Origin: an uncultured Candidatus Saccharibacteria bacterium
GTDB lineage: Bacteria > Patescibacteriota > Saccharimonadia > Saccharimonadales > JAGQNJ01
Length of the DNA: 64,000 nucleotides
Assembly (NCBI GenBank): GCA_964504275.1
Contig: CAZDDV010000003.1
Location: forward strand, 8,690-72,689
Direction of reading: 5' to 3'
Shown: piece after piece, positions 19,282-24,488 of the stretch
Layout of the letters: each line of letters begins with the position of its first letter
Numbering within the stretch: position 1 is the first letter of the stretch
Translations under genes and position numbers: made by a program
Notes under the pieces: generated by a model
Seen by the model: the letters and a program-made list of their open reading frames with translations, nothing else
What the model was told of the DNA's origin: nothing
The model's database searches: none

Positions 19282-19710
19282 CTAGTATTTTTTGCGGCGG
19301 CGCTTGAGTTCGGCGACTTTGAGTCGAATAGCGCTTCGGTCGAGTTGCGCTTGAGCTTGATCCAAAGATTTTTGGTCTTTAGCTTCGCTCTTAAGTTTCA
19401 AGGCGTGTTCGTGGGCTTTTTTGACTTCGGCTTCGTTGAGTTCGTCGGAGTGGTCGGCTTCGTCAACCAACATTCGCACGTGATTATCCATGATTTCTAG
19501 CACGCCACCGTTAGTAACGTAATAATCCATTAGGTCATCTGGTGTGGTGGCTTTTGCACGAACTTTTATGATGCCTGGGCTTGCGATGCTAACCAGTGGC
19601 ATGTGGTCTTTAAACACACCAATTTCGCCGTCCGGAGTCGGCAAACGAAGCTCGTAGACTTCGTCTTTGAGTTTTGTGCCGCTGAGTGTTACGAGCTCAA
19701 ACTTAATCAT
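19282..19710 (-). CDS. atpC: F1 ATP synthase epsilon subunit
   Basis: 142 aa. The N-terminal beta-sandwich sequence FELVTLSGTKL...PTPDGEIGVFKDHMPLV and a helical C-terminus are typical of epsilon. Confidence 0.9.
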   Translation of the reverse strand: MIKFELVTLSGTKLKDEVYELRLPTPDGEIGVFKDHMPLVSIASPGIIKVRAKATTPDDLMDYYVTNGGVLEIMDNHVRMLVDEADHSDELNEAEVKKAHEHALKLKSEAKDQKSLDQAQAQLDRSAIRLKVAELKRRRKKY

Positions 19711-19891
19711 TATTTACCTCTGTAAATTGGTTACAACTAGCAAGCCCAAGCATGGTAACCACATCGCCAACACTTTTTGCTTCCGGAAAATTACCTTGTA
19801 CGAATTCGTTAAATGCGTAGCGAACCGCCTCGTCTTGTTGCATCAGTGGAATTTTGCTGCTAAATAGGGTGGGTTCGTGGTCGCTAAACAT
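19703..19891 (-). CDS. Unknown 62-aa ORF filling the atpD-atpC gap
   Basis: TAATG stop/start overlap with atpD and an 8-nt overlap with the atpC start. AAGGAAG lies 7 nt upstream of the ATG. No recognisable motif. Confidence 0.5.
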   Translation of the reverse strand: MFSDHEPTLFSSKIPLMQQDEAVRYAFNEFVQGNFPEAKSVGDVVTMLGLASCNQFTEVNND

Positions 19892-21270
19892 TACTTAACT
19901 TCCTTGATTGTGCCTTTCATATAGAAAGCGGATTCTGGTTTGTCGTCATGCTTGCCGTCTAGGATTTCGCGGAAGCCTGCAATGTTTTCTTTTAGGCTAA
20001 CGTATTTTCCTGATTGACCAGTGAAAATTTCGGCGACATGCATCGGCTGCGTCAAGAAACGTTGAATACGCCGAGCGCGGTTAACGGTTTGCTTGTCTTC
20101 GTCCGACAGCTCTTCCATACCCAAAATTGCGATGATATCGATCAAATCTTTGTAGCGCTGCAAGATTCGTTGTACTTCGCGAGCAACTTCGTAGTGCTCC
20201 TTGCCAACAATTTCTGGGTCTAGAATCGTCGAGCTAGAATCGAGCGGATCAACCGCTGGATACAAACCAAGCTCAGTCAGCGCACGGTTAAGCGAAATTG
20301 TAGAGTCAAGGTGGGCAAACACCGTTGCTGGCGCTGGGTCAGTAAAGTCGTCAGCCGGTACGTACACGGCTTGGACGGAAGTAATCGAGCCTTCTTTTGT
20401 ACTAGTGATTCGTTCTTGCAAACCACCCATTTCTTGGGCCAAGTTTGGCTGGTAACCTACGGCTGATGGCAAGCGGCCAAGCAGGGCAGAAACTTCGGCG
20501 CCGGCTTGCGTAAATCGGAAGATATTATCAACAAACAACAATACGTCTTTTCCTTCGTCGCGAAAACCTTCAGCAATTGTGAGGCCAGAAAGTGCCACGC
20601 GCAAACGCGCGCCCGGTGGTTCGTTCATTTGACCAAACACCAGCGACGTTTTGTCCAGTACGCCGGATTCTTCCATTTCGTAGTACAAGTCGTTACCTTC
20701 GCGAGTTCGTTCGCCAACACCGGCAAAAACAGAATATCCGCTGTGATATTTAGCGATGTTGTTGATAAGCTCGGTGATAAGTACGGTTTTACCCACGCCA
20801 GCTCCACCAAAGAGTCCAACTTTTCCACCTTTTGTGACTGGGCAGATGAGGTCGATAACTTTAATTCCGGTTTCCAAAATTTCTACACCGCCAGATTGTT
20901 CGGCCAGGGTAGGGGCGGAGCGGTGAATTGGCGCGGTTCGTTTGTGGTCTGATTTTTTACCGTCGATTGGCTCGCCAATAACGTTGAACATGCGGCCCAG
21001 TGTTTCTTTACCGATTGGCACACTAATTGGCGCGCCGGTGTTTGTCACTTGGTCGCCGCGGGCAATTCCGTCGGTCGAACTAAGCGCAATCGCGCGGACA
21101 GTTGACTCACTCAAGTGCTGCGCAGTCTCAAGCACGATTTTGCGGCCATCAACATCCATAGTCAGTGCGTTATAAATTTCTGGCAATTGGCCTTCGGTAA
21201 AGGCTATGTCAACGACAACACCCACAATCTGAGTGATTTTGCCTTGATTTGTTTTCGTTGCTGTTGTCAT
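19891..21270 (-). CDS. atpD: F1 ATP synthase beta subunit
   Basis: 459 aa. P-loop GGAGVGKT; [14 protein letters not shown] and the overall sequence are unmistakably beta. Confidence 0.98.
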
Positions 21271-21290
21271 TTAATTCTCCTTAATATCTG

Positions 21291-21782: not shown

Positions 21783-22645
21783 GCTATTGCCTCCGCGCCG
21801 CCGGTGATTTCGGCGATTTCTTGGGTAATTGCTGCTTGTCGAGCGGTGTTAAATGCCAGAGTCAAATCGTCGATTAAATCGTTGGCGTTGTCGGTAGCGC
21901 TTTTCATGGCCATCATTCGCATAGAATGCTCGGATGCGCGGCTTTCGAGCAGTGATTGGCTTAAGTTTGCTTCGATTAGTCTATCGGTAACGCTGTCTAA
22001 AACGGCTTTTGCCGATGGCTCAAACACGGCGTTTTCGAGGTCGCGCGGAATTTCAACTTCAGTGAATGCTGCTGGTAGCAGACGATCAACCGTAACTTCT
22101 TGGTTGATGCTCGATTTAAAATCCGTATAGATTACATCGACCGCGTCGATTGCTGCTGTTTTGTACGAATCGGTAAGCGTAGAAAGGATTGGTGCAATAT
22201 CATTTGGCGAGGCAATTTCGGGGAAGTTTTGATAGGCGGCTACAACTTCGACGCCTTCTAGTTTTGCCGCAAAAATAGACACTTGACGGCCAACAACGAT
22301 AAGCTGTGTCGTTATGTTTGATTCGACATCTCGTTTAAGTTCGGTAGTTAAACGGCGCAGAACATTGCTGTTGTAGGCTCCGGCAAGTCCGCGATCACTA
22401 GTAACGGCAACAATCAAGCGAGTTTTAACATCGCGCTGCACAAACAACGGATGCACATCAACATCTGTTAGTTCGCGCAGACGAGTCAAAATTGCGTTCG
22501 CTAAATTTCGGTAATCGCGAGATTTCGCGGCAGCATCTTGCGCGCGCCGCATTTTGCTGGCAGCTACAAGCTCCATAGCCTTAGTAATCTGTTTGGTATT
22601 TTTAACAGATCCAATCCGCTGTTTTAGTTGCTGCGTACTAGCCAT
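21779..22645 (-). CDS. atpG: F1 ATP synthase gamma subunit
   Basis: 288 aa. The N-terminus is RIGSVKNTKQITKAMELVAASKMRRAQ and the C-terminus is NTARQAAITQEIAEI. Confidence 0.97.
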   Translation of the reverse strand: MASTQQLKQRIGSVKNTKQITKAMELVAASKMRRAQDAAAKSRDYRNLANAILTRLRELTDVDVHPLFVQRDVKTRLIVAVTSDRGLAGAYNSNVLRRLTTELKRDVESNITTQLIVVGRQVSIFAAKLEGVEVVAAYQNFPEIASPNDIAPILSTLTDSYKTAAIDAVDVIYTDFKSSINQEVTVDRLLPAAFTEVEIPRDLENAVFEPSAKAVLDSVTDRLIEANLSQSLLESRASEHSMRMMAMKSATDNANDLIDDLTLAFNTARQAAITQEIAEITGGAEAIA

Positions 22646-22934
22646 TCAGAATCTCGTTTCTCGAATTCAAAATCTCAGTTTCTAATTCATAATATACTCG
22701 AATGCCTCGCGCAATTGCATAGTCTTCAATCTGGTCAGTAACAAGAGCAATTGGCGTTGCATCGCGCAAACCAACGATACCGTAACCAATAACTCCGCGA
22801 ACTGCCATCTCCGCGCGTAGATAGAGTACTGCATCAAAATCATCAACAGGGCTTGGCAAAACCTCTCTGATTAATCGACTTGCGACATCCATCTCTGAAT
22901 CAAACATCTCGGCATGCGTAGCAGTCATTGTCAT
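22638..22934 (-). CDS. Unknown 98-aa ORF filling the atpA-atpG gap
   Basis: Its ATG directly follows the atpA TAA (TAAATG) and its stop overlaps the atpG start by 8 nt. AAGGAAG lies upstream. No recognisable family. Confidence 0.55.
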   Translation of the reverse strand: MTMTATHAEMFDSEMDVASRLIREVLPSPVDDFDAVLYLRAEMAVRGVIGYGIVGLRDATPIALVTDQIEDYAIARGIRVYYELETEILNSRNEILNG

Positions 22935-24488
22935 TTACGCTTCCTTGTAGCCTTTGGCGATTTCGGTTGCAGTTTTGAGGATGGCTTTTTGCATTTCTTC
23001 GGTTGGTTTGCCGCCTTTATCGAGTTCGCTCATGAGTTTTCTGTGGTCTTTGTGCAAGCGAGCGAGTAAGTTTTCTTGCACTACTCTTACGTCTTTGACT
23101 GACACACCGTCGAATGCGCCCTCGTTAGCAGCGTGCAAAATTGCAGTTTGTTCCCAGACAGAAAACGGCGAGTACTGTGGTTGTTTTAATAGTTCGGTCA
23201 AGCGTTGGCCGCGTTCGATACGCTGCTTGGTTTCTGGGTCAAGATCGGTAGAGAACTGCGCGAATGCAGCCAGTTCGCGGAACTGCGCCAAACTCAAGCG
23301 TAAGTTTCCGGCCACACCTTTTACGGCTTTGGTCTGCGCTGCGCCACCAACACGTGATACTGACAAGCCAACCGAGATTGCTGGGCGAATACCCTGGTAG
23401 AACAAGTTGGTTTCCATGAAAATCTGACCATCGGTAATAGAAATCACGTTGGTTGGAATATATGCGCTAATATCGCCAGCTTGCGTTTCGATAATCGGTA
23501 GGGCAGTTAGTGATCCGGCGCCCTCGGCGTCGCTCATTTTTGCCGAACGCTCGAGTAAGCGAGAGTGCAAGTAGAACACATCGCCCGGATATGCTTCGCG
23601 GCCTGGTGGGCGCCGGAGCAACAGTGACATTTGTCGATACGCCGCCGCGTGCTTGGTTAAATCATCGTAAATAATCAGCGCGTGCTGGCCGTTGTCGCGG
23701 AAATATTCGCCCATGGCAGTTCCGGCGTATGGCGCCAAAAACTGCAAGCTGGCTGGGTCGGCGGCAGATGTTGCGACGACAATTGTTTGATCCATAACAC
23801 CTTCGCGTTTGAGTCGTTCCACCAAACGAGCAACTTTGCTCAGCTTTTGGCCAACAGCAACATAAATGTTAACAATGCCGGTTTTTTGGCGATGTTGGTT
23901 AATCATGGTGTCGATTGCAATGGCGGTTTTTCCAGTTTGGCGGTCGCCAATGATAAGTTCGCGCTGGCCACGGCCAACAGGAATCATCGAATCGATTGCT
24001 AGAATTCCGGTCATTAATGGTTCGTGGACGCTTTTTCGGGCCAAAACTCCAGGGGCGGAGCGTTCTACCAAGCCTTTTTTGCTAGTTTTAACGGGCTCGC
24101 GGTCGTTTCCTTTGCCGTCCAAAGGGCGACCAAGCGGGTCAACCACGCGTCCGACTAACTCTGGACCAACAGGCACTTCCAAAACTTTTCCGGTTAAACG
24201 AACTTTAGCACCAGCTTTTACCTTGACGTCTTCGCCGAGCAAAACCGCACCGATTTCGTCTTCCATCAAGTTAAGCGCAAAGGCCGTTACGGTTCCACCA
24301 TCAGTCGCGTCGATTTCGATCATTTCGTTATAACCGGCAGCTGTTAAGCCGTAAATCCAGGCAATACCATCGCCAATACGCGTTACTAAACCAACGGTTT
24401 CCATTTGTCCGCTGCCTTTGAGCTGCTCAATCGCTTCGCGAATACTTGCGCTCAGTTCTTTTACAGATAGTTCAGTGCTTGATGTCAT
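22935..24488 (-). CDS. atpA: F1 ATP synthase alpha subunit
   Basis: 517 aa. P-loop GDRQTGKT plus alpha-typical sequence throughout. Confidence 0.98.

Follow-up and report, generated by a model that had tools for sequence, protein, structure and literature searches.

What are three small open reading frames (ORFs) doing inside the F1 part of a bacterial ATP synthase operon? The order atpA-atpG-atpD-atpC is among the most conserved gene arrangements in bacteria. In the DNA analysed here (the window: 64,000 nucleotides (nt) of contig CAZDDV010000003.1 from an uncultured Candidatus Saccharibacteria bacterium) the atp operon, on the minus strand at 19282-26817, reads atpB-atpE-atpF-atpH-atpA-ORF98-atpG-ORF163-atpD-ORF62-atpC, the three additional ORFs being named for their lengths in amino acids (aa). 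We refer to the junctions that hold them as the A-G, G-D and D-C slots.

A sequence-only reading of this DNA had offered two explanations: lineage-specific accessory, inhibitory or assembly subunits of F1, or selfish genes sheltered in an essential operon. Our own reading, to which we give somewhat better than an even chance, is that the three F1 slots are permissive, that their contents turn over fast, and that ORF98, ORF163 and ORF62 are translated passengers in them. They are most likely not conserved ATP synthase subunits, and what ORF98 and ORF163 each do is probably dispensable or confined to the strain.

The interleaved genes and their junctions

22935-24488, minus strand: atpA, F1 alpha subunit, 517 aa; Pfam ATP-synt_ab found on the identical gene in locus L082
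22638-22934, minus strand: ORF98, 98 aa, orphan, acidic; matches only itself, gene-like codon score
21779-22645, minus strand: atpG, F1 gamma subunit, 288 aa; PF00231, E 4e-86
21291-21782, minus strand: ORF163, 163 aa, orphan, basic; matches only itself, weak codon-usage signal
21271-21290, minus strand: non-coding spacer, 20 nt, with atpD's own Shine-Dalgarno (SD) motif AAGGAG at about 21277-21282
19891-21270, minus strand: atpD, F1 beta subunit, 459 aa
19703-19891, minus strand: ORF62, 62 aa, acidic; belongs to a family of three members, each located in a D-C slot
19282-19710, minus strand: atpC, F1 epsilon subunit, 142 aa; PF02823, E 2.5e-15

The ATG of ORF98 abuts the TAA of atpA (TAAATG), the atpG stop and the ORF163 start have ATGA in common, and the atpD stop and the ORF62 start have TAATG in common. 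At its other end ORF98 overlaps atpG by 8 nt, its stop being an out-of-frame TAG within atpG's ATGGCTAG, and ORF62 runs into the start of atpC by the same length. The starts of ORF98, ORF163 and ORF62 are preceded at 5-8 nt by SD-like motifs (AAGGAAG, GGAGG and AAGGAAG respectively), the first of them in the 3' end of atpA. The ORFs, gene order, overlaps and motifs had all been described from the sequence before, and we find each of them as described. To that account we add that ORF163 and atpD are not coupled stop to start, since the 20-nt spacer between them carries atpD's own AAGGAG. The start regions of ORF98 (AAGGAAGCGTAAATGACAA, 22928-22946) and atpD (AAGGAGAATTAAATGACAA, 21264-21282) are identical at 15 of 19 positions, and the N-termini of the two proteins (MTMTAT and MTTAT) are alike; this may be chance or convergence on the context of SD and ATG.

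The same DNA is present in five independent assemblies (JGI 3300020219 and 3300020203; Logan SRR6448204/6/9), and therefore the arrangement is no assembly artefact. The five copies are 100% identical and so hold no variants from which a ratio of nonsynonymous to synonymous differences (pN/pS) could be computed. Rfam, promoter/terminator and repeat scans of the operon gave nothing above background, and the repeat scan found no direct or inverted repeats flanking the three ORFs.

Occupancy of the slots among relatives

Is the window an isolated case? We compared it with 80 species-representative loci and with an independent set of 80 metagenome contigs (160 atp operons), counting a junction as occupied where the gap exceeds 150 nt. 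The window belongs to Saccharibacteria (TM7), and its nearest atpG among the species representatives has 84% identity; the metagenome scan made with atpG yielded no relative nearer than 70% identity, and these contigs served as the replication set. Among the species representatives the A-G slot is occupied in 31/79, G-D in 44/77 and D-C in 36/70, which gives 111/226 for the F1 junctions against 10/251 for the four Fo/stator junctions combined. The metagenome contigs repeat the pattern (A-G 24/72, G-D 31/59 and D-C 16/43 against 1/42 for H-A), and over all 160 operons about 45% of F1 junctions are occupied and about 4% of Fo/stator junctions. Hence the earlier remark that only the F1 genes are interleaved and the Fo/stator block is not, made for one locus, holds for the clade. 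No slot is occupied in 19 of 69 complete loci.

The gaps are filled in much the same manner as in the window. ORFs on the operon's strand cover 92% of 117 gaps, usually one ORF per gap, and the longest open frame takes 0.92 of the gap as compared with 0.48 in shuffles. In 82 of 111 occupied gaps the first ORF begins at -4 to +2 nt relative to the stop of the gene before it, and in 75 of 111 the stop of the last ORF falls at -8 to +3 nt relative to the start of the gene after it. Each slot has its own habit. A-G ORFs start 0-2 nt past the atpA stop or overlap it, and 17 of 31 end at the -8 TAG inside atpG; ATGA is common to the atpG stop and the G-D ORF in 30 of 43; and of 37 D-C ORFs, 17 have TAATG in common with the atpD stop and 22 reach 4 or 8 nt into atpC. 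By codon score, the frame used is the best one in 127 of 136 gap ORFs.

What the slots hold

The contents are extremely diverse. After iterated searches with hidden Markov models, 101 of 139 gap ORFs remain singletons and the others form 14 small families, nearly all specific to one junction. About 8 of 134 match Pfam, and the families concerned are related neither to each other nor to ATP synthase: 23S_rRNA_IVP three times, flavodoxin-like/FMN reductase twice, and GNAT, Crp and low-molecular-weight (LMW) phosphatase. In L070 and L073 (Saccharimonadaceae) all three slots hold larger ORFs of 138-190 aa, four of the six with Pfam matches: LMW phosphatase in the A-G slot of L070, GNAT in the G-D slot of L073, and, in the D-C slot of each, a flavodoxin-like NAD(P)H reductase. 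The G-D ORF of L070 looks deoxyribosyltransferase-like by eye only and has no Pfam match; the A-G ORF of L073 matched nothing. In L004 a 3.8-kb insertion (8306-12094, D-C) parts atpC from atpD and carries a gene for a Crp/cyclic-nucleotide-binding regulator as well as an opposite-strand ORF of 376 aa.

Conserved flanks with non-homologous content among relatives are what is expected of hypervariable slots, and the phylogenetic distribution adds to this. In a tree of atpG and atpD the basal lineages are compact, and a large derived clade is patchy, with occupancy differing between sister taxa; thus the window locus has all three slots filled and L001 only A-G and D-C. The ORF62 family is common to the window and to the non-sister loci L022 and L081, and the D-C slots of the window's nearest relatives contain either an unrelated 'YTP..LND' family (hhalign probability 0.4% against the ORF62 family) or an intervening-sequence (IVS) element; together these observations imply that the content of the slot has been replaced. 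One ORF family stands alone in one species and beside other ORFs in another, which implies modular gain and loss of whole ORFs. The D-C gap of L006 (about 6296-6350) contains a 52-nt mini-ORF, MAGELALLLGVTLEDVIA..., open and coupled. It preserves the beginning of the 88-aa D-C ORF of L011 together with that ORF's C-terminal '...LLGV..EDV..' end, and is thus a remnant of an in-frame deletion. A similarity between the A-G ORF of L008 and the G-D ORF of L011, considered as a sign of movement between slots, was too weak to count as evidence. Where slot families can be detected at all, their dN (nonsynonymous divergence) is 2-4 times that of atpG or atpC, and pN lies below a saturated pS.

Some of this cargo is evidently selfish. 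The D-C slots of L001 (3951-4366) and L033 (3603-4040) carry PF05635 genes for a '23S rRNA intervening-sequence protein' (IVP) flanked by inverted repeats of 23-31 nt, an IVS-like stem architecture inserted in a protein-coding operon instead of rRNA, and the A-G slot of L058 has a truncated IVP copy without the repeats. It could be proposed that all slot ORFs are selfish or mobile cassettes that target conserved junctions in the manner of IVS elements or of free-standing homing-endonuclease genes, and the modular gain and loss of whole ORFs would agree with this. We consider the proposal true for the elements in L001 and L033 and not evident for the window ORFs, for which we find it improbable: Pfam and PHROGs show no nuclease or recombinase domain (HNH, GIY-YIG, LAGLIDADG) in them, the PF05635 domain with its flanking inverted repeat is absent, no copies exist elsewhere in the window or in the 160 loci, and an ORF that is single-copy in all public data is not visibly mobile. 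Of the earlier suggestion of selfish genes in an essential operon, then, the unrelated passengers and the IVS elements speak in favour, and the lack of nuclease, recombinase and repeats in the window ORFs speaks against. Because the slots hold unrelated passengers, some of them true IVS-type elements, this suggestion is nevertheless closer in spirit to our reading than the one of F1 subunits.

A cultured relative

The tables of Wang et al. 2023 (PMC10633639) allow a comparison with Southlakia epibionticum ML1, in which SEML1_0356 (341945-342427, 160 aa) lies between atpG and atpD, overlapping the atpG stop (341948) by 4 nt and the atpD start (342420) by 8 nt. Its structure-based annotation is N-deoxyribosyltransferase/DUF4406-like, and it is non-essential by transposon sequencing (Tn-seq; PMC10633639). 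Compared by position and annotation, SEML1_0356 resembles ORF163 in occupying the G-D slot, in size and in a closely matching upstream junction; it differs in having a recognisable fold. S. epibionticum can do without each component of its ATP synthase (PMC10633639), so the notion of an essential operon does not hold there. Saccharibacteria are, moreover, naturally transformable by homologous recombination with arms of about 1 kb (PMC10633639).

Homology and coding signal of the window ORFs

At E<=1 neither Pfam nor NCBIfam gave a family for ORF98, ORF163 or ORF62, families of ATP synthase subunits, accessory proteins or inhibitors included, and the controls atpC, atpG and atpH matched strongly. 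PHROGs and a PDB sequence search gave no match either, and the PADLOC models for anti-phage defence and toxin-antitoxin systems gave 0 families; the earlier impression by eye that the three proteins have no recognisable motif thus stands up to profile searches. In a set of 5.8 billion clustered proteins the only match to ORF98, and likewise to ORF163, is the query itself, and for ORF163 the same holds in an exhaustive phmmer (HMMER) read of 1.84 billion representatives. The two have no homologue outside their species and may be called species-specific orphans. This does not apply to ORF62: two proteins, P0003 of L022 and P0004 of L081, are related to it, each from a D-C slot.

The possibility that ORF98 and ORF163 are paralogues, raised because both contain an AVxGxIxY...EDYA pattern, was not borne out: BLASTP gives E=13, the best local alignment is that very motif with a Smith-Waterman score of 40, and 2.5% of shuffles reach this score for a motif picked by eye. 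No paralogues of the three were found within the window. Comparison of the three window gaps with 80 relatives by blastn and tblastx revealed no nucleotide or six-frame similarity, hhalign found no relation of ORF98 to the main A-G family, and a metagenome scan with the alignment of the A-G family returned no match. Derivation of the ORFs from atp genes read in other frames was also considered, and only trivial physical overlaps turned up.

Are they genes at all? A codon model trained on the 25 window ORFs of at least 250 aa (atpA, atpD, atpG and atpB among them) gives 0.288 bits/codon for ORF98 and 0.297 for ORF62, compared with 0.246 +/- 0.075 for the training genes and a 95th percentile of 0.155 for shadow ORFs. 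ORF163 scores 0.060, with its own frame still the best of the three, and in this it is like the compositionally atypical genes of the window. Genes with such low codon-usage scores (0.03-0.15 bits/codon) cluster at 18-6678 and 48833-49465 and may be horizontally acquired. When the gaps are shuffled, the observed open fraction is reached in 66/20000 cases for ORF98, 7/20000 for ORF163 and 1409/20000 for ORF62. Single-sequence AlphaFold (AF2) models of both orphans are unreliable: ORF98 is given three helices at a predicted local distance difference test (pLDDT) of 53 and ORF163 has a pLDDT of 35, values too low for folds to be compared in a useful way.

Two further explanations have to be judged against these data. 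The first is that the ORFs are chance open frames in long spacers. The absence of homologues and the low structure confidence are what one would then expect, but a joint shuffle probability of ~1e-7, the clade-wide pattern, a frame-specific composition (see below) and the SD motifs and overlaps make this extremely improbable. The second explanation, that they arose de novo where they stand, out of spacers that had expanded in a highly transcribed operon serving as a gene nursery, draws on the orphan status, on the weak codon signal and unfoldable prediction of ORF163, and on the 118-nt A-G gap of L052, where four tandem copies of the 7-nt unit CATGTCT may illustrate a route of spacer expansion. 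Yet the codon usage of ORF98 and ORF62 is gene-like, published orphan and de novo candidates have a higher isoelectric point (pI) than conserved genes, the opposite of the acidity of slot ORFs (PMC11293555), and the nucleotide composition predicts a pI of ~9.8. Moreover, no relative has a stop-riddled homologous spacer, though divergence is too high for one to be detected. We regard birth in place as very unlikely.

Openness, SD motifs, coupling and codon score together favour ORF98 and ORF62 as coding and are weak for ORF163. ORF62, from its comparison with relatives, is to be regarded as a real gene, because family members occur in the same slot, a core of ~30 residues is conserved, and the dN/dS of 0.23 between the L022 and L081 members indicates purifying selection. 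ORF98 is, by its codon usage, probably a real gene. ORF163 is the least certain of the three.

The acidic bias of slot proteins

Unexpectedly, slot ORFs that are otherwise unrelated have a feature of composition in common. Gap ORFs have a median pI of 4.64 (4.61 in the metagenome set) and 70% of them lie below pI 5, as compared with medians of 6.29 for the flanking genes, 9.20 for free-standing small ORFs and 10.1 for shadow ORFs. Nucleotide shuffles of the same gap sequences give 9.75 and their two other frames about 10.2, so the acidity is specific to the frame. Compared with the atp proteins of their own loci, the gap ORFs encode 0.58 times as much lysine and about 1.2 times as much Asp/Glu. 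ORF98 (pI 4.33, net charge -9) and ORF62 (4.30) fit this class; ORF163 (9.56) does not.

A frame-specific bias of this kind rules out neutral filler. A more refined version can be formulated, however: the ORFs carry ribosomes across inserted DNA, prevent polarity and keep atpG and atpC coupled, their products have no function, and selection requires no more than that they be open, coupled and harmless. The slot ORFs indeed have no universal features besides gap-filling and double coupling; extreme diversity, low AF2 confidence and the in-frame 52-nt remnant in L006 are readily accommodated, and the acidity could be due to selection against products that are toxic when highly expressed. On the other hand, pN is below pS in some slot families that have lasted to the point of saturated dS, the ORF62 family has its conserved core and low dN/dS, bona fide enzymes occupy the same slots, and no relay is needed at G-D, because atpD has its own SD. 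On balance we think translated filler of this sort unlikely, while still giving it some weight.

The acidity has also to be weighed in relation to F1 itself. It may be argued that the ORFs encode lineage-specific F1-associated regulators, inhibitors, assembly factors or protectors whose homology has been lost through rapid evolution and whose acidity reflects a common partner, F1. Strict restriction to F1 junctions and a frame-specific, acidic and lysine-poor composition across unrelated sequences are in line with this. The F1 inhibitors (IF1, zeta, AtpTheta and the epsilon C-terminal domain), too, are small, lineage-specific and mutually unrelated. Nevertheless we find the argument quite improbable, both in this form and as the accessory subunits first suggested. 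ORF98 and ORF163 are without homologue, none of the window ORFs matches a Pfam family of subunits or inhibitors, and ORF163 is basic; most slot ORFs are singletons, presence varies between sister species and 19 complete loci are empty. The cargo, furthermore, includes a GNAT protein, flavodoxin-like reductases, an LMW phosphatase, Crp and IVS proteins, and the slot gene of S. epibionticum is non-essential and deoxyribosyltransferase-like.

A bolder view can also be put forward. The hyperdiverse, acidic, lysine-poor small proteins of the F1 junctions would form a functional class acting on F1, for example fast-evolving regulators or protectors of a reverse-running ATPase in respiration-less epibionts, whose evolution would be driven by conflicts with hosts or competitors. 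Or else the slots would serve as a permanent nursery of genes, where new, translationally coupled proteins are put to the test without pause. We judge this distinctly unlikely.

Proposed mechanism

Returning to passenger genes in permissive slots, the reading that we prefer, we picture their expression as follows. The ORFs would lack promoters of their own and depend on the atp mRNA, along which translational coupling would bring ribosomes to them. After finishing atpA, ribosomes would restart at the abutting ATG of ORF98, using the SD that in compact operons serves atpG, and, as ORF98 ends 5 nt inside atpG, would be passed on to that gene. ORF163, whose start is overlapped by the atpG stop, would be translated in a similar manner, with atpD initiating from its own strong SD. 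The start of ORF62 is overlapped by the atpD stop and its end lies inside atpC, to which it would relay ribosomes. Contents are gained, lost and replaced as whole ORFs and diverge fast; a plausible route of exchange is natural transformation, with recombination in the conserved genes on either side. Selection would then retain acidic, lysine-poor, soluble proteins that are harmless at the expression levels of the atp operon. Translation, the efficiency of coupling, recombination as the exchange route and harmlessness as the cause of acidity are all points that we infer from sequence comparison.

Several observations weigh against this picture. ORF163 is atypical in its basic pI, its codon score and its pLDDT, and could be very young or a non-functional frame. 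The class-wide acidic bias could point equally well to a shared function, possibly related to F1. The coupling of the window ORFs is deduced from their nucleotide sequence. The restriction to F1 is not accounted for, given that the H-A junction also borders the conserved atpA and yet is rarely occupied; our comparison covers the junctions of the atp operon, and F1 may not be the sole place with such slots. Finally, the closest relative differs at 55-63% of fourfold-degenerate sites and dN/dS between species representatives is mostly saturated, so that for ORF98 replacement and runaway divergence are not separable.

The Fo/stator block

The Fo/stator block of the window (24517-26817, minus strand) is uninterrupted:

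25945-26817, minus strand: atpB
25636-25887, minus strand: atpE
24909-25457, minus strand: atpF
24517-24906, minus strand: atpH

The spacer between atpE and atpF (25458-25635) is unusually long at 178 nt and has no convincing ORF, the longest being 48 aa with a TTG start; its sole Rfam match is a sub-threshold miRNA false positive. In relatives E-F is the Fo junction most often expanded (5/61). The delta subunit encoded by atpH is only 129 aa long; of the 172 positions in the OSCP profile its match covers just 50-171, the N-terminal part being missing. The delta gene of S. epibionticum is likewise short, at 381 nt (table in PMC10633639).

Relation to known systems and significance

Orphan genes, hypervariable islands and operon hitch-hiking are known phenomena, and the slot pattern belongs to them. 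Species-specific orphan genes (Vakirlis et al. 2024, PMC11293555) resemble the ORFs described here in having no outside homologue, in being short and in standing among functionally coherent neighbours; they differ in their higher pI, whereas slot ORFs are strongly acidic and recur at three fixed junctions of one operon throughout a clade. With the hypervariable regions, or flexible islands, found at conserved positions of streamlined genomes such as that of SAR11 (PMC2217521) the slots have in common conserved flanks, content that varies between relatives and, probably, exchange by recombination, but islands of that type comprise several genes and lie between operons, while the atp slots have the size of a single ORF, lie inside the operon of a multisubunit enzyme and are stitched in by overlapping starts and stops. 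AtpI/AtpZ, atpR and atpQ of N-ATPases and the F1 inhibitors (the epsilon C-terminal domain, zeta, IF1 and AtpTheta) are likewise small and associated with the atp locus or with F1. Those families, however, are conserved, are mostly membrane proteins or defined inhibitors and are encoded before atpB or outside the operon; the window ORFs do not match them and are not conserved. The protein elements of 23S rRNA intervening sequences (PF05635) are also small ORF cassettes that enter highly conserved, highly expressed loci, and they use the same D-C and A-G slots; the window ORFs differ in lacking both the PF05635 domain and inverted repeats.

Literature searches found no description of interleaved ORFs in an atp operon, and as far as could be found the clade-wide pattern of three coupled, hypervariable and acid-biased slots in the F1 block is undescribed. 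For annotators it carries a caution, namely that genomic context alone is insufficient to name such ORFs ATP synthase subunits. For the biology of the group it means that in a large clade of Saccharibacteria the conserved F1 order is routinely interrupted, at exactly three junctions. With more than 100 independent slot contents, this is a natural replicated system for the accommodation of small genes in a highly expressed operon, one that can show both the filter imposed on new or foreign small genes and the rebuilding of translational coupling around them. S. epibionticum, which is transformable, has Tn-seq data and carries an occupied G-D slot, makes this system experimentally tractable.

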